This document shows, piece by piece, positions 8,035-32,211 of a DNA stretch of 64,000 bases. The notes beneath the pieces were generated by a model. That model was not told where the DNA came from, ran no database searches, and saw only the letters and a list, made by a program, of their open reading frames with translations. The position numbers and the translations under genes are program-made. Where the stretch lies: assembly GCA_963768055.1 (NCBI GenBank), contig CAVYGN010000001.1, positions 53,590-117,589 on the forward strand, in the 5' to 3' direction. The stretch is from an uncultured Spirochaetota bacterium (GTDB taxonomy: Bacteria > Spirochaetota > Brevinematia > Brevinematales > JAOACQ01). Position 1 is the first letter of the stretch; each line of letters begins with the position of its first letter.

Positions 8035-8223
8035 ATGAATGCCTCCTGCTGTATTCTTACGCATTCCCCCTGCAGAATATATACCGGTTCGCAGGAAAAG
8101 TAAAGGGTCAAACGGCAGGCAATAACGATTTTAAAAAATTAAATATTAAAATACCGGGATTTCGGTATTGAAATTCTGAAAGTTTTGCTTTATTCTATCT
8201 TAAATTATGATTTTATGGAACAA

Positions 8224-10113
8224 ATGATGAAAAAAGCAGAAGCGATCGTTTTGATCATTTTATTGATCCTGATAAAAGGTTTGATTTCAGGGCAGGATGA
8301 CAGCAGCTACTATCCCGGCGATACCTGGCGGACATCTACGGCGGAAGCTCAGGGGATGGATTCCGGATACCTCGTCAAAATGATGGATGATATTCAATCG
8401 AATAATTTGAATATACACAGCATGATAATTATAAGGCATGGATATGTTGTTATGGAAGCTTACAGAGAACCCTTCGGAAAGGACAATATTCATGCCATTA
8501 ATTCATGCACTAAGAACGTAGCGTCAGCTTTGATCGGCATCGCTCTGAGGGAAGGCTATATTAAAAGCATCGATCAAAGGGTGGTTGATATCTTTTCAAA
8601 CCTGAATATTAAAAATCTGGATGATAACAAGCGGGCTATGACAATTAAACACCTGCTTACCGAGAGTTCCGGAATCAATTTTACCGGGTTATATCCCGAT
8701 GGATACTTAAACGCCCCCGATTGGACCCGATTTTATCTCGATCAGCCGATGGCCGCGCCGCCCGGCAAGGTGTTTCATTATGATTCCGCGGGCGTGAATC
8801 TCCTTATGGCAATTCTGCAGAAAACCAGCGGCTTGAAAAATTCGGATTTTGCCGATAAATTCCTCTTCAAACCGATAGGCATTACCAAATACTACTGGCA
8901 GTCCGATCCTCAAGGTCTTAATCTGGGGGGTATGGGGCTTGCATTGACGCCTATGGAAATGGCCAGGTTCGGTTATCTTTATCTGAAAAAGGGTTTATGG
9001 AATGGAAAGAGGGTAATACCTGCCGATTGGGTAGAGGCGTCCCTGTCCAGTCAGATAAAACCGCCTGCCTGGTTTTCTAAAGACAAGGGGCACGGCTACC
9101 TCTGGTGGGAGCTTCAATCCGGAGGATTCGCGGGGATCGGCCATGGGGGGCAATATATAATTGTCATGCCCGGGCGGGATATGGTGATCGTAATTAACTC
9201 CGGACTTTCCGATAAAACTCATTGGCAAACTGTAAGCCCTCTGATAGAATATATAAACAAGTCTGTCGTATCCGGTAAAAGTATCGTGGAAAATCCGGAA
9301 AAACAAGCAGAACTGTCGGAGGCCATCAGGAATTTGGCGAATCCGGCAAGCAAAACGGCAATTATTATTCCGGAAACGGCTCAGAGAATATCCGGTAAAA
9401 AATATATCCTGAATCCAAACTCATGGAATTTAAAAACCCTTATGGTGACTTTTAATGGAAAGGACGAATGTATTGCCGAACTGGGCTGGCCCGGTTTTCT
9501 GTTCTTTGACTACCGTTACGAAATTGCAATCGGATTGGACGGCAAATACTGGGAGAATAGATTTGCCCCTGATTTTCGCCAGCGCGAACTTTCACGGGGT
9601 AAATGGGTCAGTAATGATACTTTTGTTATTGAATATTACAGGCCCTGGGCCGATAGCAGTAAAATTCTTTGTGTTTGCCAAATTGATCATGACAGGTTTT
9701 CAATGACATTGGAATCGACTACCGGAGAATGGCTGCAGGAGTTTACAGGGAAAATGGAACAACAGATTTTCTTATTTGAAGCGGCTTCCAGGGGCGATTA
9801 TAACTTCATAAAAAGTTATCGGGGCTATATCGACGATAAAGACGATTACGGCAAGACGGCAATGATGTACGCCGCCGATGCCCTGACGGTTAAAACGTTA
9901 ATCGCAGCCGGGGCCGATATAAATTCGGTTGATGAAAAAGGCTGGACGGCATTGATGTATGCGGTCAAGGAAGGAAAAACGGATGCGGTTAAAGAATTGA
10001 TCGAAGACGGTTCCGATATAAACGCGAAAGATAATTACGGCAGGACGGCTATATTTTGGGCTAAAAATGAAGCTATAGTAAATCTGTTTAAAAATGCAAA
10101 AGCCGGGAAATAG
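8224..10113 (+). CDS. serine hydrolase (beta-lactamase class C-like) with C-terminal ankyrin repeats
   Basis: SxxK (SCTK), FHYDS, GHGGQ; ankyrin motifs GKTAMMYA, GWTALMYAV, GRTAIFWA. Confidence 0.85.
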   Translation: MMKKAEAIVLIILLILIKGLISGQDDSSYYPGDTWRTSTAEAQGMDSGYLVKMMDDIQSNNLNIHSMIIIRHGYVVMEAYREPFGKDNIHAINSCTKNVASALIGIALREGYIKSIDQRVVDIFSNLNIKNLDDNKRAMTIKHLLTESSGINFTGLYPDGYLNAPDWTRFYLDQPMAAPPGKVFHYDSAGVNLLMAILQKTSGLKNSDFADKFLFKPIGITKYYWQSDPQGLNLGGMGLALTPMEMARFGYLYLKKGLWNGKRVIPADWVEASLSSQIKPPAWFSKDKGHGYLWWELQSGGFAGIGHGGQYIIVMPGRDMVIVINSGLSDKTHWQTVSPLIEYINKSVVSGKSIVENPEKQAELSEAIRNLANPASKTAIIIPETAQRISGKKYILNPNSWNLKTLMVTFNGKDECIAELGWPGFLFFDYRYEIAIGLDGKYWENRFAPDFRQRELSRGKWVSNDTFVIEYYRPWADSSKILCVCQIDHDRFSMTLESTTGEWLQEFTGKMEQQIFLFEAASRGDYNFIKSYRGYIDDKDDYGKTAMMYAADALTVKTLIAAGADINSVDEKGWTALMYAVKEGKTDAVKELIEDGSDINAKDNYGRTAIFWAKNEAIVNLFKNAKAGK

Positions 10114-24213: not shown

Positions 24214-24531
24214 TCAGCAGCATCCGCCGGATTCCGGCTCTTTACAGGACTGCGGCCCCCCGCACCCGCATTCGGGAGATTTATTCCCGAAAATGCCGCT
24301 GATTACCGCGGCGGCACATCCGACACCGGAATTGACTTCGATTGCACCGGCCGGGCAATTTATCCGGCAGGCCCCGCATTCCATGCATGCGTCTCTTATA
24401 ACTATCAATGCTTTTTTATCAAGCAGCTTGAAAACATTATGCGGGCAAACTTCTATACAATTGCCGCATCCGGTGCATTTATCGATGTCCAATGCCAGGC
24501 TCCCGCCGTTTTTAATATATTTCCAGATCAC
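24214..24531 (-). CDS. hgcB: mercury methylation ferredoxin HgcB
   Basis: Two CX2CX2CX3C motifs including CMECGAC; C-terminal CC; directly after hgcA. Confidence 0.95.
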   Translation of the reverse strand: MIWKYIKNGGSLALDIDKCTGCGNCIEVCPHNVFKLLDKKALIVIRDACMECGACRINCPAGAIEVNSGVGCAAAVISGIFGNKSPECGCGGPQSCKEPESGGCC

Positions 24532-24533
24532 TG

Positions 24534-25562
24534 TTACCCTCCGATATTCAGAATTTTTAAAATATTTAATACGATCCCTCCCGCAAAGGCCGCGGCCATA
24601 ACGGGCAGCGATCTTTTAACCTCGAGAGTCGCGCCGGTTTGATTTGTAAATGTCGTCGATCCCGTAAAATTCATGGCTATAAACGATATTACGGGAATCG
24701 TTATAAGGGCCAGTAATAGCGACCCGTAAATTGAAAGCCTGCATATCCATGCCGCCGGTAAGCAATATATAATACCGAGAACGCCGCCCTTTAAAGAAAA
24801 GGCCCTGAAAGGCAGGTATGGGAGCAGCAGGGGAAATACAAAAACTCCTGAAAGAACGGAAAAAATGTAAGCGGTAAGAAGCGGCGTAAGTCTTTGTATA
24901 TAAGTTTTGTCTAAAGGCAGGCTGAAAACAGAGCCGAGAATAATGAGAACAGAAACAAGCCACATGCTTTGAACCAGTTCCACCGGAGCCACTATAAGCC
25001 TGTCCTTCCAGTTGAAGCTTACCTCGCTCATGCGGGCGTCTTTTTTCATCCCTTTTGCCATGAATCGTTTTATATCGCCTGCACGGACAGGGCCGTATGT
25101 AATTTCAAATTTTGTCATCATGCGGGCCTTATAAGAAGACACTCCTACAGCGCCAAGCTGCGGCAGGATGATTTTCCTGTGCCTTACGATCCTTTCGAGC
25201 CCCGATTCTAATATTCTTTTTACAAGCTCCATTGTTCCGAAAGTACCCTTTCCGGCTGCGCACCAGACGTTGATGCCCCTGGTATCGAGAACGATCAGCC
25301 AGGCGTCCAAGCCTTCAAGGTTTTTTCTAACAATGTCGAAAGAAAGTTTATAGTTGGCCGTGACAAATACAGGTGAGTCCTGATCCGGTTTCCCGATCCC
25401 GTAAAGCCCCGGAGAAACCCTGTAATTTCCTCTCCCGATATCGAGCCTGACCATAAGGCCGCCAATCCAGTCTGTAAAGGTGAGCTTAGTCGATATTAAA
25501 GGAATTTGCCGGTTGGAAATGCCGGCATAACCACTTATATAAGGTTCCCTTTTATCCATCAT
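24534..25562 (-). CDS. hgcA: mercury methylation corrinoid protein HgcA
   Basis: Cap-helix NVWCAAGKG, VTANYKLSFD, C-terminal TM domain ending FTGSTTFT; start may be the second Met (25559). Confidence 0.97.
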   Translation of the reverse strand: MMDKREPYISGYAGISNRQIPLISTKLTFTDWIGGLMVRLDIGRGNYRVSPGLYGIGKPDQDSPVFVTANYKLSFDIVRKNLEGLDAWLIVLDTRGINVWCAAGKGTFGTMELVKRILESGLERIVRHRKIILPQLGAVGVSSYKARMMTKFEITYGPVRAGDIKRFMAKGMKKDARMSEVSFNWKDRLIVAPVELVQSMWLVSVLIILGSVFSLPLDKTYIQRLTPLLTAYIFSVLSGVFVFPLLLPYLPFRAFSLKGGVLGIIYCLPAAWICRLSIYGSLLLALITIPVISFIAMNFTGSTTFTNQTGATLEVKRSLPVMAAAFAGGIVLNILKILNIGG

Positions 25563-26007
25563 GGACCTCGCTTGTTGTTTTTTTTCTCAGGGCGTCGGCG
25601 AAAAGTTTGAAGGATTCAACCACGCCGGCATGTTTATAATCGGGTATGTATTTAAAAATATCCAGGTATATTTTGTTCCATAACGAATTTATCTCACAGG
25701 TAATTCTATAGCCGGTTTCCGTCAGTTTAAGGTTAGTATATCTCCTGTCTTTAGGATTTTCAGACCTTTCAATAAAACCCGATTTGAACAATTCGTCGGC
25801 TGTCCTGCTCAAAGTGCTTTTATCAAGGTCGAGGGCTAGGGAAAGCTGTTTTATTGTAAGTTCTCCCTGCGATTCTATCTCCATTAGCATGTGACATTGA
25901 GGCACGGTGATCCCGCAGCAGCAATCGCCGTTTGCAAACTGCCTTTCTATCGCCCTTTCTATTACCCTGATCGATTTTCTGAAAATTCCTAACTTTAATT
26001 CGTCCAT
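25552..26007 (-). CDS. MarR family regulator with DCCC motif
   Basis: ITVPQCHML, LDLDKSTLSR, ENPKDRR; overlaps the hgcA start. Confidence 0.9.
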   Translation of the reverse strand: MDELKLGIFRKSIRVIERAIERQFANGDCCCGITVPQCHMLMEIESQGELTIKQLSLALDLDKSTLSRTADELFKSGFIERSENPKDRRYTNLKLTETGYRITCEINSLWNKIYLDIFKYIPDYKHAGVVESFKLFADALRKKTTSEVHDG

Positions 26008-26041
26008 ATTTTATCCGGTTTATTGAGTGTGTATAACAACT

Positions 26042-26070
26042 ATTGTAACACACAACTACGATAATGTCAA
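26042..26070 (-). promoter_or_regulatory. sigma70 promoter of marR-hgcAB
   Basis: TTGACA-17 bp-TACAAT; -35 overlaps the GH1 stop; imperfect IR (GTGTGT..ACAA-N3-TTGT..ACACAC) overlaps the -10. Confidence 0.7.
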
Positions 26071-27410
26071 TAGCCGTTGTTATCAATAACCGATTTAAGC
26101 CACAAGCCGCTTTTCTTGACTGTCCTCTTTTGCGTTTTAAAATCCACATGAACAAGCCCGAATCTCTGTGAATACCCGGCGTTCCATTCAAAGTTATCCA
26201 TGAAGGACCATACAAAATAACCGGCCAGGTTTACTCCGGCTTGTATCGCCCGGTGGGCCTGGAATATATGTTCCCGGATATAATTAATCCTGTTATCGTC
26301 ATTAACTTTCCCCTGCGGGTTTAAAACATCCTTAAAGGCCGCTCCGTTCTCGGTTATCATCATTTTTATGCCATTGTATTCCCTGTGAAGATAAAGCAAT
26401 AGATCGTAAAGGCCTGCGGGATATATTTCCAATCCCGAGCCGGTCGTTTCCTTTCCTGTTTTTGTAAAGGAAGTTTGAAGATAGGGTTTACCGGGATCAT
26501 GCCTTGCCGAATTGCTTGTATAATAATTTACACCTAAAAAATCAATCGGGGTATTTATTATATCCATGTCGTCTTTTTTTATTTCAGGAAAATCTGCTGT
26601 CTCAGAAAACCAATTGACCAGCTCGGGCGGATATTGCCCTTTCATTACAGGGTCGAGGAACCAGCCGTTATAAAAATCGTTGTAACGCCTCGCTGCGGCA
26701 ATGTCCCTCTCATCCATTGACGCGGGGTAGACCGGATTCAGGTTAAGCTTTATCCCGATTTCGCCCTTCATTCCCATTTCACGGAAAGCGCGGACGGCCC
26801 TGCCATGCGAGAGCAGGATATTATGAGAAACGGATAGCGCTATTGAAAGATCCTTGATCCCAGGCGGATGCCCGCCGTACAAGTTGCCCGCAAAGGCGCT
26901 CACCCAGGGCTCGTTGAATGTCGCCCAGATTGGGACCATATCTCCAAGTTCCCTGAATACATAGCGGGAGTATTCTTCGAAATAATTAATAGTTTCCCCG
27001 GCGGCCCAGCCTCCGATATCCTGGAGTTTCTGGGGCAGGTCCCAGTGATACAGGGTAGCCGCAGGTTTAATTCCGTTTTCAAGAAGCAGACCGGCAAGTC
27101 TCCTGTAAAAATCGATTCCCTTTTTATTAGGTTTTCCTTTGCCTTCCGGAAATATCCTCGGCCAGGAAACGGAAAAAAAGTAAGATTTGAATCCGAGGTC
27201 TTTAAGAAGTTTTACATCCTTCTCATAAAGATGATAATGGTCGCAGGCGACATCGCCGTTATCGTTGTTGAATATCTTTCCAGGCCGCAGGTGAGTGAAG
27301 CGGTCCCAGATCGATTCCCCCTTCCCGTCTTCCAGGTAAGCGCCCTCGATCTGATATGAGGCGCTCGACGCGCCCCAGATGAAGCCATGCGGAAAAACTA
27401 ACCCCGGCAT
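26067..27410 (-). CDS. GH1 beta-glucosidase
   Basis: WGASSASYQIEG, TFNEP (acid/base), ITENG (nucleophile), WSFMDNFEW. Confidence 0.95.
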   Translation of the reverse strand: MPGLVFPHGFIWGASSASYQIEGAYLEDGKGESIWDRFTHLRPGKIFNNDNGDVACDHYHLYEKDVKLLKDLGFKSYFFSVSWPRIFPEGKGKPNKKGIDFYRRLAGLLLENGIKPAATLYHWDLPQKLQDIGGWAAGETINYFEEYSRYVFRELGDMVPIWATFNEPWVSAFAGNLYGGHPPGIKDLSIALSVSHNILLSHGRAVRAFREMGMKGEIGIKLNLNPVYPASMDERDIAAARRYNDFYNGWFLDPVMKGQYPPELVNWFSETADFPEIKKDDMDIINTPIDFLGVNYYTSNSARHDPGKPYLQTSFTKTGKETTGSGLEIYPAGLYDLLLYLHREYNGIKMMITENGAAFKDVLNPQGKVNDDNRINYIREHIFQAHRAIQAGVNLAGYFVWSFMDNFEWNAGYSQRFGLVHVDFKTQKRTVKKSGLWLKSVIDNNGY

Positions 27411-27532
27411 TTTTCACCCGGGCAGCCGCACGGTGCGGGCGGCCTGCAATCCGTGTTTTCCGGGCCGCAGCATTCGCAATCGATGCCTTTTTGCTTTGAA
27501 ACGCCTTCCATTTCCTTTTTGAACTCAAACAT
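27398..27532 (-). CDS. 44-aa Cys-rich mini-protein (not in ORF track)
   Basis: AGGAGG, 7 nt, ATG; MFEFKKEMEGVSKQKGIDCECCGPENTDCRPPAPCGCPGEKCRG*; 7 Cys; stop overlaps the GH1 start; lies directly behind an ECF-type promoter copy. Confidence 0.7.
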   Translation of the reverse strand: MFEFKKEMEGVSKQKGIDCECCGPENTDCRPPAPCGCPGEKCRG

Positions 27533-27562
27533 AATTGAGCCTCCTGAATTATTTTTCATAAT

Positions 27563-27598
27563 ATATGACGTAAGTTTCCCTGAAAGGACGCAAAATCC
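27563..27598 (-). promoter_or_regulatory. ECF sigma-type promoter, copy 1
   Basis: Minus strand TGCGTC-16 bp-CGTC; 34/36 identical to copy 2. Confidence 0.75.
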
Positions 27599-27637
27599 AT
27601 GATAATTTGCAGTGCCATTGTAAAAAAACCTTGCATT

Positions 27638-28996
27638 TTATTCTCCTCTTACAATATTTAGCAAGCAGGACGGCCGGACAGTATAGGACCTGATAAGATC
27701 GGCGAGTTCCTCCCATCCGGTGCAGTTTTCCAGTAAAAAAGACCTTGGATAATCTTTGATCTCCTCCCAGGGAATAGACTGCAATACAGGTTTGAAAAAC
27801 TGGCGGATTTGAAGCTCATCAAGAAAAGAAAAAATCCTGAATTTCAACTGTTCTTTTACTTTGTAATCAATTGCTGAAGAAAACCTGTCCTCCAGCATTT
27901 TGAATATTTCCACTGCTATAGCGGAATTACCGAGGCCCCGTCTTTGATCCCTGATTTTATCGGCCATTGACGCCCATTTTGTGCCGTTCTTCGGATAAAC
28001 CAATCCCATTGCCCCGATATCTTTATAAGCCCAATAAGTCCATGAAATGCGGTATTTTTCAAAAAGATCGAGACAGTCTTTTACTAATTTCAGACCTTCC
28101 ATCAGCCTGCCTTTGGGAAAAAACCCTCCGGTCTCTCCAACCCACAGAGGCATGCCTGTTTTTTCTCTAAGGCCGATGAAATACGATAGTTTTTGTTCCA
28201 GTTCCGCTTTTCTTTTTTCAGGTTCTGCGGATAATAAAACATGCATACCGGGGTAAAAATGGAACGAAATAGCCTGCTGGCGCCCGCCTAAATTTTTAAA
28301 TAAATTAAAGTCCTTGGCCCAGTCGTCTCCTTCAAGGAATATTATGTGATTATTATCGATTTCTCGTATCTTACGGATCACCCTGTCATAAAAGACGTTG
28401 AAGGTATCGATATCAGGAACGAATGCGGGTTCATTGAGTATATCGAAACCGGCAATGATCGGATCATCCTTATACCTCTCCGCTATATATCCCCAGAGGT
28501 TGACGATTCTCTCTCTCGATGAGGCGTCTTCCCAGAACGTGCTGACCCCTGTATCACCCCCGCCATGCGAATCGGGGTTTTGGCCGCCGGGTGAAGAATG
28601 CATATCAAGGATAGCGAAAATATCATATTTACGGCAAAGCTCAAGCACCCGGTCTATATGTTTAAATCCTTCAGGTTTATACTCCCCCGGCGCCTGATCA
28701 TCTTCAAAACGCCTGTAATCGAGAGCCAGCCTTAAGGCGTTTATGCCCAGACTTTTTAATAATATAAAATCTTCTTCGGTAATGAAGAATCGCAGGTAAT
28801 CATCAAAAAATTGGGCGGAATTTTCGCTGCCGTAAACCCCGGCAAAAGTCTGTCGGATTCTCTTATTGGAGCCCGGTATTCCGATCATGAAATTTTCGAT
28901 ATTCATCCATGATCCTAACACAAACCCCCTTAAAATTATAGATGTGTTATGAAGGGTAAATTCCCCGTTTTTAGCTTGGATAAAACTTGTGTCCAT
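27638..28996 (-). CDS. GH5 glycoside hydrolase (cellulase family)
   Basis: ILDMHSSPGGQN, FDILNEP, FHFY, WVGETG; start placed at MDTSF because the longer ORF runs through the promoter. Confidence 0.9.
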   Translation of the reverse strand: MDTSFIQAKNGEFTLHNTSIILRGFVLGSWMNIENFMIGIPGSNKRIRQTFAGVYGSENSAQFFDDYLRFFITEEDFILLKSLGINALRLALDYRRFEDDQAPGEYKPEGFKHIDRVLELCRKYDIFAILDMHSSPGGQNPDSHGGGDTGVSTFWEDASSRERIVNLWGYIAERYKDDPIIAGFDILNEPAFVPDIDTFNVFYDRVIRKIREIDNNHIIFLEGDDWAKDFNLFKNLGGRQQAISFHFYPGMHVLLSAEPEKRKAELEQKLSYFIGLREKTGMPLWVGETGGFFPKGRLMEGLKLVKDCLDLFEKYRISWTYWAYKDIGAMGLVYPKNGTKWASMADKIRDQRRGLGNSAIAVEIFKMLEDRFSSAIDYKVKEQLKFRIFSFLDELQIRQFFKPVLQSIPWEEIKDYPRSFLLENCTGWEELADLIRSYTVRPSCLLNIVRGE

Positions 28997-29028
28997 GCTT
29001 TTTATTCCGTTAAAATATTTTCCACAAG

Positions 29029-29064
29029 ATATGACGTAAGTTTCCCTGAAAGGATGTAAAATCC
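29029..29064 (-). promoter_or_regulatory. ECF sigma-type promoter, copy 2
   Basis: ATATGACGTAAGTTTCCCTGAAAGGATGTAAAATCC on + strand; minus strand TACATC-16 bp-CGTC. Confidence 0.75.
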
Positions 29065-29075
29065 GGGATGTGTTT

Positions 29076-29630
29076 TTAAGAAATGTTACAGCAGCAGCAT
29101 GTGACGGGCCGGATGTCGATGATTGTACCAAAGCGGTCGAATTCGAAATGGCAGCAATTCATGAGGCTGTCCCTGACTAATTTGCGGCCCCTCTGGACGC
29201 GCGACTTGGCACATGATGATGAAATACCAAGTTTTTCCGCTACTTCAACGATTGATAAACCCTGAAATTCGAATAAGAGAAGAGCCTGCGCGTACTTTTC
29301 CGGCAGGGTTTCGATCATATTTCTCAGGCCCGAAGCGATTTCATCCTCCGGGCTTTCCTCTTCTCTTTCATAGCCGATTTCGATATCATCTATATCCTTG
29401 ATCCCTGTCCTGCGTTTCCTGTAATAGTCTATTATCGTATTCCGCGCTATCCGGTAGATCCATCCTACCAGCTTCGACTGTTCCTCGAGTTTATCGATAT
29501 TAAGGTGGATCTTTAAAAAAACATCCTGAAGGATATCGTCGATATCGGAGCGGTTGGATATCCTATGGTATATAAAAGCCCTTATCCTTTCTCCGAAATC
29601 TTCCCAGATTTGATTGAAATCATGCGGCAT
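29076..29630 (-). CDS. sigZ: ECF RNA polymerase sigma factor, SigZ-like, with Cys-rich C-terminus
   Basis: DDILQDVFLKIH, WIYRIARNTIIDYYRK, AKSRVQRGRK; tail CCHFEFDRFG..TCCCC. Confidence 0.85.
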   Translation of the reverse strand: MPHDFNQIWEDFGERIRAFIYHRISNRSDIDDILQDVFLKIHLNIDKLEEQSKLVGWIYRIARNTIIDYYRKRRTGIKDIDDIEIGYEREEESPEDEIASGLRNMIETLPEKYAQALLLFEFQGLSIVEVAEKLGISSSCAKSRVQRGRKLVRDSLMNCCHFEFDRFGTIIDIRPVTCCCCNIS

Positions 29631-29678
29631 AATTACCCAAAACCTCCGTCATCTTCAAAAAAAATATTTTTTTACAAG

Positions 29679-29714
29679 ATATGACGTGAATATTTTTGAA
29701 AGGATGCAAAGTCC
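29679..29714 (-). promoter_or_regulatory. ECF sigma-type promoter, copy 3 (autoregulatory position)
   Basis: Minus strand TGCATC-16 bp-CGTC; 28/36 identical to copy 2 with -35 and -10 conserved. Confidence 0.75.
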
Positions 29715-29862
29715 GGGATTTTTTTTGCATTACATTATAAGTTCCAATAAATTATACTCTTCTTAAAGGAAAAAATTCAACATCTTTCTTTATTTTTTAA
29801 GCCGGCCTCTTTAACCTTATGTTAAAATATTCTTTCAGCTGTGAGAATTTGTTTAGTTTCTT

Positions 29863-32211
29863 ATGAGGTTCCGGATGAAAAGATTTTTTGCGGTTTCAGC
29901 AATTATCTTCACCTTCAATGTAATGTCTTTTCCTGCAAACCTTACTGTAAAAGTAACCGACGGGAAGATCGCTCTCGAAGATGCGACTGTGGTCATCATG
30001 GAACTCAAAACGAATATTCTGACTTCCGACATGGGCATAATTTTTGTCAAAAATATACCGGACGGGAAATACACAATGATCGCAGTCCTGCCGGGATATG
30101 AAAAATACAGCAATGTCATAGAGATGAACGGAGAAGACAGGGAGATCGATGTGAGGCTCAGGCCGGTTACTTTTTCCCTCGGCGAAATAAATGTCGAAGC
30201 GAAAAAGAACGAGGGAAAGGTCCAGACTACAACCACTATAAAAAAAGACGAACTCGAGGCAAATACACAGACCTTCATGAACGATGCGGTAAAGACCCTC
30301 CAGCTTATGCCCGGCGTCTCGTCCGGAGGGGGGACTTTCGACAGCAGGATGTACATACAGGGCGGCGACCAGGACGAATGGATCGCTTACATGGACGGTA
30401 TATGGATCATGAACCCGACTGTATTCGGAGGGTTCCTGTCGATGTTCAACCCTTATGTGATAGAAAACATAGACCTTTACACGGCAGGGTATCCCGTCGA
30501 GTACGGACAGGGTCTTTCAGGCATAATTGTCGTCGATACGAAGAATGGAAATAAGGACAGGCTGAAGGGATTTATCGATATTTCCCTTATTTCGGCGGAG
30601 ATGCTCCTTGAAGGGCCTTTAAGTTCAAACTTCACGGTGATGTTCGATATGAGAAGGACCTATTACGATCTTTATCTGTCGGAAATATTTTCCAGTTCAC
30701 TGCTTTCAGGGGTCCAGCTTCCATATCTTTGGGACGGGATAATAAAATTCGACTGGGACATTTCCCCTCATGACAACCTTACCCTGGACCTTTACGGCAA
30801 CATAGAGGGATTGAAATGGGATTTCAGCGGTTTTAGAGGGTCGTCCGGCTCGAATGAGGAATTTTATTACCAGCAGATAAACCTTATCGGCAGCATGAAA
30901 TATACCCACAGGGATGATTCGGGCGACGCATTCGATCTTGTCGCAGGCGCAACACCTCAATTCAACCAGGACCAGTTAAGCGGAAGCCCTAATACCTTTT
31001 TTGACGACACTGAAAATGATTATTTATACCAGGTAAAGTCGGATTATTTTTTAAATTCCATTAAAGGGCACAAAATTCAGCTGGGCGGGCAATTTGTATA
31101 TGATGTCCCGACCGGCAGCGATGTGATCAGCAATTATTCGCTAAACGCGCAGGGCCAATGGGCGAACACTTCGGAACTGGATCTTAACTACAATTCGACC
31201 CGGATCGCTTATTACAGCGGTTATCTCATGGATAACTGGGAGATCTTCCCCTCGATAATCATAGAGGGAGGGGGAAGGGAGGAGTATTATACGCTAAATG
31301 GCGAAAGCGCCTTCAACCCCCAGGCAGGGATAAAGTGGGAGAGCACCGATGCGCTCGATTTCTACCTGAGGGGAGGTTTATATCATCTTTTTCCTACGGA
31401 TATTTCCTATATAGACAGCAATATGGGGAATCCTGACTTGCAGAGCGAGAAAGTCTGGCATGTCATCGGGGGGACCGAATATTCAAGCGGTGATTACGTC
31501 CTGCGCCTGGAGGGTTTTTACAAGTACTATTACGACCTGTGGGAAAGCGATTCAATACTCCGCTACAATAACGACGGGATAAGGAATATATACGGCGGGG
31601 ATGTCTACATCCAGAAAAAGGCAAGGAAGGGCGAATGGCTTTCGGGATGGATCGCTTACACATATGTTTACGGTGCAGAGGACGTAATCGACAGGTCGCC
31701 TGATAATCCCGCGAATCCTTATCAGACTCCCTTAAACGACTGGTATGTCCCCGATTATCTCCGGGAGGATACTATATCGGCCATTATTGAAATGACGTAT
31801 TATAAAAATCCGGACGTGCCTTCTTTTCTAGACTTTCTTAACGAATGGAAGCTTTCCCTTGAGCTTTCGGCGCTTAGCGGCAAGCCATACACGCCGGCGA
31901 CTAATTTCATACAGAGCACCGATCCAAACGGCAATACGGTTTATTACATAAACTACGGCTCATACGACAGCCAGTATACTCCATGGTATATAAGGCTTGA
32001 CGTAAAGATTACAATACCTGTAGGACTGCATTTTCTCAGCGGACTTCTTGGGCCCAATGTGAACGGCTATTTCTATGTTGAAGTATTAAATGTTCTAAAC
32101 CTTTCGAATGTGATAGGCTACTATTACAGCGTCCAGAACGGCCAGCTTACCCAGACCCCGGAAAAAGACCTTCCGTTCGTGCCTTTCGCCGGATTCCGCA
32201 TAGAGTTTTAG
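29863..32211 (+). CDS. TonB-dependent receptor
   Basis: Signal peptide; carboxypeptidase-regulatory-like N-domain; plug LQLMPGV; YPVEYGQGLSGII; C-terminal FRIEF. Confidence 0.9.
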   Translation: MRFRMKRFFAVSAIIFTFNVMSFPANLTVKVTDGKIALEDATVVIMELKTNILTSDMGIIFVKNIPDGKYTMIAVLPGYEKYSNVIEMNGEDREIDVRLRPVTFSLGEINVEAKKNEGKVQTTTTIKKDELEANTQTFMNDAVKTLQLMPGVSSGGGTFDSRMYIQGGDQDEWIAYMDGIWIMNPTVFGGFLSMFNPYVIENIDLYTAGYPVEYGQGLSGIIVVDTKNGNKDRLKGFIDISLISAEMLLEGPLSSNFTVMFDMRRTYYDLYLSEIFSSSLLSGVQLPYLWDGIIKFDWDISPHDNLTLDLYGNIEGLKWDFSGFRGSSGSNEEFYYQQINLIGSMKYTHRDDSGDAFDLVAGATPQFNQDQLSGSPNTFFDDTENDYLYQVKSDYFLNSIKGHKIQLGGQFVYDVPTGSDVISNYSLNAQGQWANTSELDLNYNSTRIAYYSGYLMDNWEIFPSIIIEGGGREEYYTLNGESAFNPQAGIKWESTDALDFYLRGGLYHLFPTDISYIDSNMGNPDLQSEKVWHVIGGTEYSSGDYVLRLEGFYKYYYDLWESDSILRYNNDGIRNIYGGDVYIQKKARKGEWLSGWIAYTYVYGAEDVIDRSPDNPANPYQTPLNDWYVPDYLREDTISAIIEMTYYKNPDVPSFLDFLNEWKLSLELSALSGKPYTPATNFIQSTDPNGNTVYYINYGSYDSQYTPWYIRLDVKITIPVGLHFLSGLLGPNVNGYFYVEVLNVLNLSNVIGYYYSVQNGQLTQTPEKDLPFVPFAGFRIEF

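Follow-up and report, generated by a model that had tools for sequence, protein, structure and literature searches.

The window analysed here, a stretch of 64,000 nucleotides from an uncultured bacterium of the Spirochaetota (order Brevinematales, contig CAVYGN010000001.1), carries the gene of a SigZ-type extracytoplasmic function (ECF) sigma factor, followed by the genes of a glycoside hydrolase of family 5 (GH5), a small cysteine-rich protein (hereafter the mini-protein), a family 1 (GH1) beta-glucosidase, a MarR-type regulator and the mercury-methylation proteins HgcA and HgcB (Table 1). All genes from the sigma factor to hgcB lie on the minus strand, as the original prediction, made from the bare sequence, had stated. 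That prediction linked them through one regulon, with possible read-through into hgcAB. We consider a narrower reading likely, in which positions 26067-29780 form a self-contained, laterally mobile SigZ/ECF238 regulon, parked upstream of a separate marR-hgcA-hgcB operon under MarR control.

Table 1. Features of the sigma factor module and the adjoining marR-hgcA-hgcB genes in the window (promoters and operator are predicted; aa, amino acids).
Feature	Position	Strand	Basis
Sigma-70-type promoter upstream of sigma gene, TTGAAT-18-TATAAT	29751..29780	-	consensus scan, 10/12 matches
ECF-type promoter copy before sigma gene, TGCATCC-N15-CGTCATAT	29679..29708	-	motif scan
SigZ-type ECF sigma factor (ECF238-like), 184 aa, tail CCHFEFDRFGTIIDIRPVTCCCC	29076..29630	-	NCBIfam, Pfam
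ECF-type promoter copy before GH5, TACATCC-N15-CGTCATAT	29029..29058	-	motif scan
GH5 glycoside hydrolase, 452 aa	27638..28996	-	PF00150, E = 9.6e-33
ECF-type promoter copy before mini-protein/GH1 pair, TGCGTCC-N15-CGTCATAT	27563..27592	-	motif scan
Mini-protein, 44 aa, 7 Cys, MFEFKKEMEGVSKQKGIDCECCGPENTDCRPPAPCGCPGEKCRG	27398..27532	-	ATG start behind AGGAGG ribosome-binding site
GH1 beta-glucosidase, 447 aa	26067..27410	-	TIGR03356, 586 bits (cut-off 478.5)
marR-hgcAB promoter and putative operator: TTGACA, 17-bp spacer, TACAAT, repeated AGTTG half-sites	26008..26070	-	consensus scan
MarR-family regulator, 151 aa, GDCCCG motif	25552..26007	-	PF01047, E = 6.7e-16
hgcA, corrinoid protein of mercury methylation	24534..25562	-	NF040863, 387 bits (cut-off 275)
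hgcB, ferredoxin of mercury methylation	24214..24531	-	NF040864, 113 bits (cut-off 99)

The sigma factor and its promoter motif

The sigma factor scores above the cut-offs of both SigZ profiles of NCBIfam, TIGR02959 with 202.6 bits (cut-off 168.65) and NF007215, narrowly, with 213.1 bits (cut-off 212). Pfam places PF04542 (Sigma70_r2) at residues 10-74 and PF08281 (Sigma70_r4_2) at residues 102-150, so that the protein consists of sigma2 and sigma4 domains only, the layout of ECF (group 4) sigma factors, and its matches in PDB are SigW, SigE and SigH. A short C-terminal extension (about 20 aa) rich in cysteine agrees with the description of ECF238. The linker between the two domains (residues 72-100, RKRRTGIKDIDDIEIGYEREEESPEDEIA) holds no cysteine and thus no CxC, hence the protein was not filed as CorE-like. 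Across 41 sigma homologues C159, C160, H161, F162, D165, G168, C178 and C180 are invariant and C179 nearly so, which gives the tail pattern CCHF-x2-D-x2-G-x9-CCC, and the window copy (CCHFEF...TCCCC) has a fourth tail cysteine. In an AlphaFold2 model (mean predicted local distance difference test, pLDDT, of 76) these Cys/His residues sit on a beta-hairpin (162-173) that follows the last sigma4 helix. Among the sigma-locus neighbours examined there was no anti-sigma domain, and loci of the glycoside hydrolase type are accompanied by the conserved mini-protein. The SigZ-like character and the cysteine-rich tail, both part of the original prediction, are borne out by both SigZ cut-offs and the invariant tail. 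The only candidate sensor of this sigma would be its own C-terminal Cys/His knuckle.

Proteins of this type are rare among Spirochaetota (6 of 401 genomes have an NCBIfam SigZ match), and 2167 database proteins match the window sigma at E < 1e-30. The sigma orthologues of two Bacillota metagenome-assembled genomes (MAGs; L040 6902-7000 and L041 6899-7000) have an additional cysteine-rich extension at the N-terminus (MCYSKSCTSH... and MCSSEICINHPEKNEKISCGIHTCEYN...) besides a C-terminal CCCCC tail. A TonB-dependent receptor gene with a CarboxypepD_reg-like N-terminus adjoins the sigma gene both in the window (29863-32211, plus strand) and in a genome of the same genus (G003, L013 12936-15257, minus strand), differing in orientation and order.

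On the minus strand one motif, with the general form TRCRTCC, a 15-bp spacer and CGTCATAT, stands in three copies, one each ahead of the sigma gene, the GH5 gene and the mini-protein/GH1 pair. Both strands of the genome (two contigs, 3.69 Mb) were scanned with the 16-position pattern CRTCCTTT-N11-ACGTCATA, which occurs at exactly three sites, those of the module, with no further site at up to two mismatches. The reversed pattern served as a control and gave 0, 1 and 9 matches in the whole genome at 0, 1 and 2 mismatches, respectively. A pattern with the wrong spacing, of use only as an unplanned control, had 8 one-mismatch matches in 61 genomes, compared with 14 for the reversed pattern. Four looser sites (C1:357877, C1:468656, C1:85381 and C1:1119444) were rejected, none being upstream of a gene on the same strand. 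The GH5 and mini-protein copies are identical at 34 of 36 positions, spacer included, and the sigma-gene copy has the same -35 and -10 elements with a different spacer. The genome-wide scan that the original prediction had asked for therefore returned nothing beyond the module, and its statements that one motif stands before the three units and that two copies agree at 34/36 positions both hold. Our results support the motif as the promoter type of the SigZ-type sigma, TGCRTCC-N15-CGTC(A/T)T, and the copy in front of the sigma gene is predicted to give positive autoregulation. The sigma-70-type promoter further upstream, absent from the original prediction, which lies in a stretch that is homologous and conserved at the sigma orthologue of a related Brevinematales MAG (L045), likely supplies basal expression.

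Comparison with L045 gives some insight into how the three copies arose. The ECF promoter copy of the sigma gene lies in a segment of about 85 bp that is present in the window and absent from the orthologous L045 region. In L045, which has no GH1 gene, one clean ECF promoter stands before GH5, and before the mini-protein gene there is only an apparent degenerate promoter remnant, as judged by eye. The orphan sigma of G003, 79% identical to that of the window, has kept an upstream CATCC box with no CGTC. From these comparisons, autoregulation and the separate mini-protein/GH1 promoter would be recent additions in this genome. The recent promoter duplication suggested originally is supported by the single clean copy and the missing segment in L045.

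The module in other lineages and its cargo

About 20 loci with relatives of the sigma (51-79% identity) were fetched from Spirochaetota, Bacillota, Bacteroidota, KSB1, Ignavibacteria and unbinned metagenome contigs. The pattern GCRTCY-N15-CGTC has 17 matches in 13 of these loci, and every match is intergenic, on the strand of the sigma, and located right after the sigma gene or before a downstream gene, with spacers that differ between loci. In about 650 kb covering 80 hgcA loci without the sigma, the same pattern gave nine scattered matches; those in one hgcA locus (L091) were rejected as lying inside GC-rich coding sequence. The claim that the motif represents the sigma's own promoters thus gains from its presence beside sigma orthologues in at least five phyla, before orthologous GH5, GH1 or mini-protein genes. 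Of the computational evidence available, this joint conservation of sigma and promoter type in several phyla gives the regulon its strongest support.

Individual promoters and genes can be followed between lineages. A promoter orthologous to the GH5 copy precedes GH5 in L045/L046, L050 and L051, with a CGTT variant of the -10 element in L055, and one orthologous to the mini-protein copy precedes the mini-protein gene in L040, L041, L048 and L050. In the Bacillota MAGs L040 and L041 the sigma gene is followed by a promoter, GH9, GH5, a second promoter, the mini-protein gene and a PF03773 permease gene. The order after the sigma gene is PF03773, GH9, GH5 and mini-protein in L049; GH5, SWEET, promoter, mini-protein and GH1, then arsR-arsD-arsA, in L050; PF03773, promoter, GH5, mini-protein and GH1 in L051; promoter, mini-protein, GH1 and SWEET in L048; and GH5, mini-protein and GH1 in L055. 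The window GH5 is 66% identical to that of L040 and 75% to that of L045, the window sigma is 58% identical to the L040 sigma, and the window GH1 is 68% identical to that of L051 and 64% to that of L048. Such orthology of GH5, sigma and GH1 across lineages indicates that the whole module moves between phyla, and that it is a real, laterally mobile regulon appears well supported by these comparisons.

Loci with other cargo share the sigma and its promoter type. In L053 an arsM gene (NF008823, 350 bits, cut-off 263) stands directly after the promoter, and Methyltransf_31 genes occur in L054, L137 and L138. PF03773 permease genes are found in L040, L041, L049, L051, L052, L056, L137 and L138, and in L138 the motif is followed by the PF03773 gene and then by an ArsM-like gene. 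The permeases of L052, L056, L137 and L138 show their best NCBIfam likeness, below the cut-off, to the SO_0444 Cu/Zn efflux transporter, and in Shewanella zinc resistance depends on a PF03773/DUF318 homologue. In the Bacteroidota loci L042 and L043 the promoter lies ahead of an operon of a CysE/EpsC-like serine acetyltransferase gene and the sigma gene. Both loci (L042 490-598, L043 6025-6086) have two promoter copies back to back, one directed at the cysE-like/sigma operon and the other at a gene on the opposite strand, which in L043 encodes a MatE efflux protein. Genes of the ars type flank L045, L050, L051, L137 and L139.

The start of the window GH5 gene was corrected to the ATG at 28996, from a TTG at 29131, and the coordinates of the mini-protein gene were likewise revised, to 27398-27532. 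The closest solved structures to its product are 9ku5 (putative beta-xylosidase GE32, E = 1e-60) and CelC (1cec). No N-terminal signal sequence was evident by eye in GH5 or GH1, and for this reason GH5 is probably cytoplasmic. The 3' end of the mini-protein gene, with its stop codon, overlaps the start of GH1 by 13 nt, and the two are predicted to be translationally coupled.

The mini-protein has a conserved head, MF(E/K)FKKxMxGVxK(Q/E)ExFECECCG, and a variable tail of Cys, Gly and Ser. The window copy has no Pfam or NCBIfam match and the L040 and L041 copies have no Pfam match, which leaves the protein outside the known families of metallothioneins and cysteine-rich peptides, no profile of a described family matching it. 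A word-indexed search returned only the query itself, and an exhaustive profile search was needed to find relatives; among 1.84 billion proteins the family comprises 21 cluster representatives, with full-length matches of 44-95 aa. The gene occurs in ten sampled loci with intact GH5 or GH1 genes (the window and nine others), a count that leaves out L139, which has a GH1 fragment and an unread open reading frame (ORF) of 59 aa. None was seen in loci without glycoside hydrolase genes, though those loci were not scanned for short ORFs. A role as a Cys-sensing leader peptide for GH1 was rejected because in L045, L040, L041 and L049 the unit ends with the mini-protein gene, and a role as an S-glycosylated peptide substrate was dropped since no module contains a glycosyltransferase. 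Most likely the mini-protein buffers thiols or metals in the manner of a metallothionein, or acts on the sigma as a feedback partner.

marR-hgcA-hgcB and its relation to the sigma

The three genes downstream of GH1 overlap or abut, the 3' end of marR overlapping the start of hgcA. HgcA contains the cap-helix motif INVWCAAGKGTFG (INVWCAAGK, in agreement with N(V/I)WCA(A/G)GK), and HgcB two CxxCxxCxxxCP motifs and a C-terminal CC (GGCC). The abundance of cysteine noted originally in the sigma tail (CCHFEF...TCCCC), the mini-protein (7 Cys), MarR (GDCCCG) and the HgcB tail (GGCC) was found in all four. Ahead of marR, TTGACA-17-TACAAT with an extended -10 TG (26070-26042) matches the sigma-70 consensus at 11 of 12 positions, a promoter that the original prediction had overlooked, and the stop codon of GH1 (TGA) lies inside its -35 TTGACA. 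Both hexamers and two AGTTG half-sites, around and after the -10 element, are invariant in the window, L045, G001 and G009. A winged-helix regulator with a repeat that overlaps the promoter upstream of its own gene is the arrangement of an autoregulated MarR operon, with the operator here predicted. The order marR-hgcA-hgcB is conserved in G001, G009, G019 and L045, and in two of these genomes the unit stands without the sigma: in G001 it follows an unrelated gene that closes with a clear terminator, and in G009 an ATP-grasp/gshA pair. We suggest that in this clade hgcAB is controlled mainly by a MarR-type repressor.

Within this order of Spirochaetota, marR, hgcA and hgcB form a conserved unit of three genes (window 25552-26070; L026 6700-7223; L027 10660-11170; L029 7138-7605; L045 4040-4450), and the MarR of this unit shows a CC(C)G motif, which reads GDCCCG in the window and SECCG in G019. 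The MarR of the sister lineage (L045 4124-4450, L046 4089-4415) has only 108 aa, missing the N-terminal ~43 residues with the CCC motif, and its promoter/operator is intact. An extra ORF of 126 aa with no Pfam match lies between hgcA and hgcB in L045 (5481-5861); the window has no such gene. In G009 (L027 11195-13489) the ATP-grasp and glutamate-cysteine ligase genes immediately upstream have the same orientation as marR-hgcAB and suggest synthesis of a glutathione-type thiol. A divergent ECF sigma gene beside marR-hgcAB in another family of the order (G019, L029 7695-8653; G025:C82) was set aside as generic, with a probable membrane anti-sigma, and not of the SigZ type. The HgcA of the KSB1 locus L052, parts of which read as N, has a cysteine-rich N-terminal extension with a repeated SCTCSSQSNG unit (8183-8450).

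The original prediction tied hgcAB to the sigma regulon by possible read-through. In that model the sigma senses a metal, metalloid or thiol, and read-through co-induces hgcAB with the glycosidases as one response unit. Consistent with it, the genes are co-directional, and the GH1-marR junction has no terminator-like site, as had been noted; its RNA lacks a U-tract and does not stand out in its folding from shuffled sequence (z = -0.86). With no terminator at this junction, transcripts driven by the sigma from the mini-protein/GH1 promoter could run into marR-hgcAB. The adjacency also turned out not to be unique to this genome. The Brevinematales MAG, recovered from two samples (L045, L046), retains the order sigma, promoter, GH5, mini-protein, marR, hgcA, hgcB at an identity to the window of only 74-75% (L045: sigma 74%, GH5 75%, HgcA 74%), and in a KSB1 MAG (L052) one strand carries, independently, sigma, promoter, PF03773 permease, hgcA and hgcB. 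The sample of about 18 lineages contains two independent adjacencies, where a rough estimate puts the number expected by chance at about 0.06; hence the neighbourhood seems more than chance and could reflect both units being drawn to metal/metalloid islands. Furthermore, ars, arsM and efflux genes recur in association with the sigma family, and hgcAB co-localises with ars genes and responds to an ArsR-like regulator (preprint 10.1101/2022.10.17.512643). Against functional coupling, however, marR-hgcAB is served by a strong promoter and operator of its own, which genomes that lack the sigma also keep, and read-through could in addition be blocked by MarR sitting on the -10 box. Neither the window nor L052 has an ECF-type motif ahead of marR or hgcA, and in L052 a long palindrome (GTGAAATGTGAAAG...CTTTTCACATTTCAC) separates the permease gene from hgcA. 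The sigma signature CCHFEFD is present in none of 80 other hgcA loci from metagenomes, and two genomes with both genes (G168, G324) carry them on different contigs. Membership of hgcAB in the sigma regulon is thus not demonstrable, and we regard coupling as one response unit as unlikely; sigma-driven read-through is possible as a minor additive input and not as the main control. An extended version, to our minds distinctly unlikely, would have the SigZ clade with the CCHF..CCC tail sense thiophilic metals or metalloids (As, Hg, Zn, Cd) directly, with the PF03773 permease, ArsM, the CysE-like enzyme, the mini-protein, the probably cytoplasmic beta-glycosidases (an unexpected member) and hgcAB forming one methylation/detoxification response to which read-through adds an activating input in this genome and its sister lineage.

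Two further alternatives concern the sigma module itself. The three repeats might be copies of a small repeated element, or binding sites of another regulator, rather than promoters, and the spacer shared by two copies (34/36) is as one would see in dispersed repeats. This is highly improbable, however, as what the different phyla have in common is limited to the -35 and -10 blocks and the 15-bp spacing, the sites always lie 30-60 bp ahead of a start codon in intergenic sequence on the same strand, their architecture is that of a classic ECF promoter with a CGTC -10 element, and they are restricted to places where the sigma gene occurs. The other alternative bears on the signal. By association with the family and its cargo elsewhere (PF03773 efflux permease, ArsM, CysE-like gene), the signal of the sigma clade is most likely a thiophilic metal, a metalloid or the thiol/redox status, and the metal- or thiol-sensing sigma proposed originally remains plausible in that the sigma and promoter pair precedes such genes elsewhere. 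The module could instead be a carbohydrate regulon, in which the sigma controls the catabolism of cellodextrins or beta-glucosides (GH5, GH9, GH1, SWEET), the tail is a structural zinc knuckle, and the metal-related neighbours and the adjacency to hgcAB are coincidences of genomic islands. GH5, GH9 or GH1, sometimes with SWEET, indeed follow the sigma promoter in ten loci (window, L045/L046, L040, L041, L048-L051, L055); inspection by eye shows no signal sequence in the enzymes, which resemble CelC and a beta-xylosidase-like enzyme; and the invariance of the Cys/His ligands is what a structural site would show. Yet at least nine other loci with the same sigma clade and promoter have no glycosidase and carry a PF03773 permease, ArsM, CysE-like or MatE gene instead, the ECF238 relatives CorE and CorE2 use their cysteine-rich tail as a metal sensor, and the mini-protein that always accompanies the glycosidases is itself rich in cysteine. 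We therefore see a purely carbohydrate-related regulon as rather unlikely.

Proposed mechanism and known systems

Under the reading of a mobile SigZ-type regulon beside a MarR-controlled operon, basal sigma would be made from the upstream sigma-70 promoter, and its Cys tail would be loaded or modified by the signal to give an active sigma. The active form would amplify itself through its own ECF promoter and switch on the two probably cytoplasmic beta-glycosidases and the mini-protein. marR-hgcA-hgcB would run from their own near-consensus sigma-70 promoter with its MarR operator, any read-through from the sigma module being minor and additive.

Several points weigh against this reading. Promoter use, dependence on the sigma and read-through are all inferred from sequence. 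Autoregulation is not general in the clade, since in the closest orthologues (L045, G003) the sigma gene is not preceded by a clean ECF promoter. One would not readily expect glycosidases under a metal-responsive sigma, so that the signal could be related to carbohydrate, with the Cys/His tail serving as a structural Zn site, and the C-terminal part of the sigma model is of moderate confidence (pLDDT about 60-66). Finally, the recurrence of the sigma-hgcAB adjacency in L045/L046 and, independently, in KSB1 (L052) suggests that the neighbourhood may not be accidental.

SigZ/ECF238 is a large group, in which a regulon or signal is known only for CorE and CorE2 of Myxococcus. The locus and its relatives supply a promoter consensus, a recurrent list of cargo and a previously unannotated partner mini-protein, which together make the group directly testable by simple sigma-plus-promoter reporters. 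How hgcAB expression is controlled is a long-standing question in mercury research, and in our literature search no paper tied hgcAB to a sigma factor or to glycoside hydrolases. A sensor-sigma module beside hgcAB in two phyla, from a sigma family wired to arsM and efflux genes, provides a concrete and testable hypothesis on this control. If the extended detoxification response were true, it would be the first activator-type, signal-responsive control of mercury-methylation genes, on top of control by MarR.

Alternative sigma factors dedicated to glycoside hydrolase genes in anaerobic cellulolytic bacteria are known from the SigI/RsgI systems of Clostridium thermocellum, in which membrane anti-sigmas sense extracellular polysaccharide and the enzymes are secreted and cellulosomal. 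The window sigma would resemble SigI in this dedication, but it belongs to the ECF and not the SigI family, has no recognisable anti-sigma, and its enzymes have no evident signal sequence. For hgcAB, the nearest parallel is the ArsR-led hgcAB of Pseudodesulfovibrio (10.1101/2022.10.17.512643), which likewise has a small winged-helix repressor gene immediately upstream, co-transcription and a thematic link to arsenic genes, whereas the regulator in the window is of the MarR family with a CCC motif. An ECF sigma module upstream of hgcAB is a feature of the window that is not described for hgcAB in the literature searched.

Built-in cysteine-rich sensors are known from other ECF sigma factors. 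OrbS of Burkholderia cenocepacia has an on-board C-terminal cysteine-rich iron sensor (PMC9023288), and shares with the window sigma a C-terminal extension of this kind, which in OrbS is a built-in metal sensor. OrbS differs in belonging to another ECF group (the iron-starvation type), with other promoters and siderophore genes as targets. ECF238 as defined by Casas-Pastor et al. (2021) has a short (about 20 aa) cysteine-rich C-terminal extension and no anti-sigma in its conserved neighbourhood; ECF24 and ECF44 go unmentioned in the main text of Rhodius 2013. CorE and CorE2 of Myxococcus xanthus, formerly ECF44 and now placed with ECF238, bind metal through the cysteine-rich tail, Cu in CorE and Cd and Zn in CorE2, which sets their activity, and their regulons include metal efflux genes. 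They share with the window sigma the C-terminal extension and have no anti-sigma, none being recognisable for the window sigma either, but the window protein has no CxC in its cysteine-free sigma2-sigma4 linker and a different cysteine pattern (CCHF...CCCC), its cargo consists of glycosidases and a mini-protein, and metal dependence is known for CorE and CorE2 only. SigZ of Bacillus subtilis (ECF238 subgroup 9) is the namesake of the two equivalog profiles whose cut-offs the window sigma exceeds, and neither protein has a known anti-sigma. The B. subtilis protein is reported to have two C-terminal cysteines only, and its regulon and signal are essentially unknown, whereas the clade of the window has an invariant or nearly invariant Cys/His motif (C159, C160, H161, C178-C180), a definable promoter and a definable cargo.

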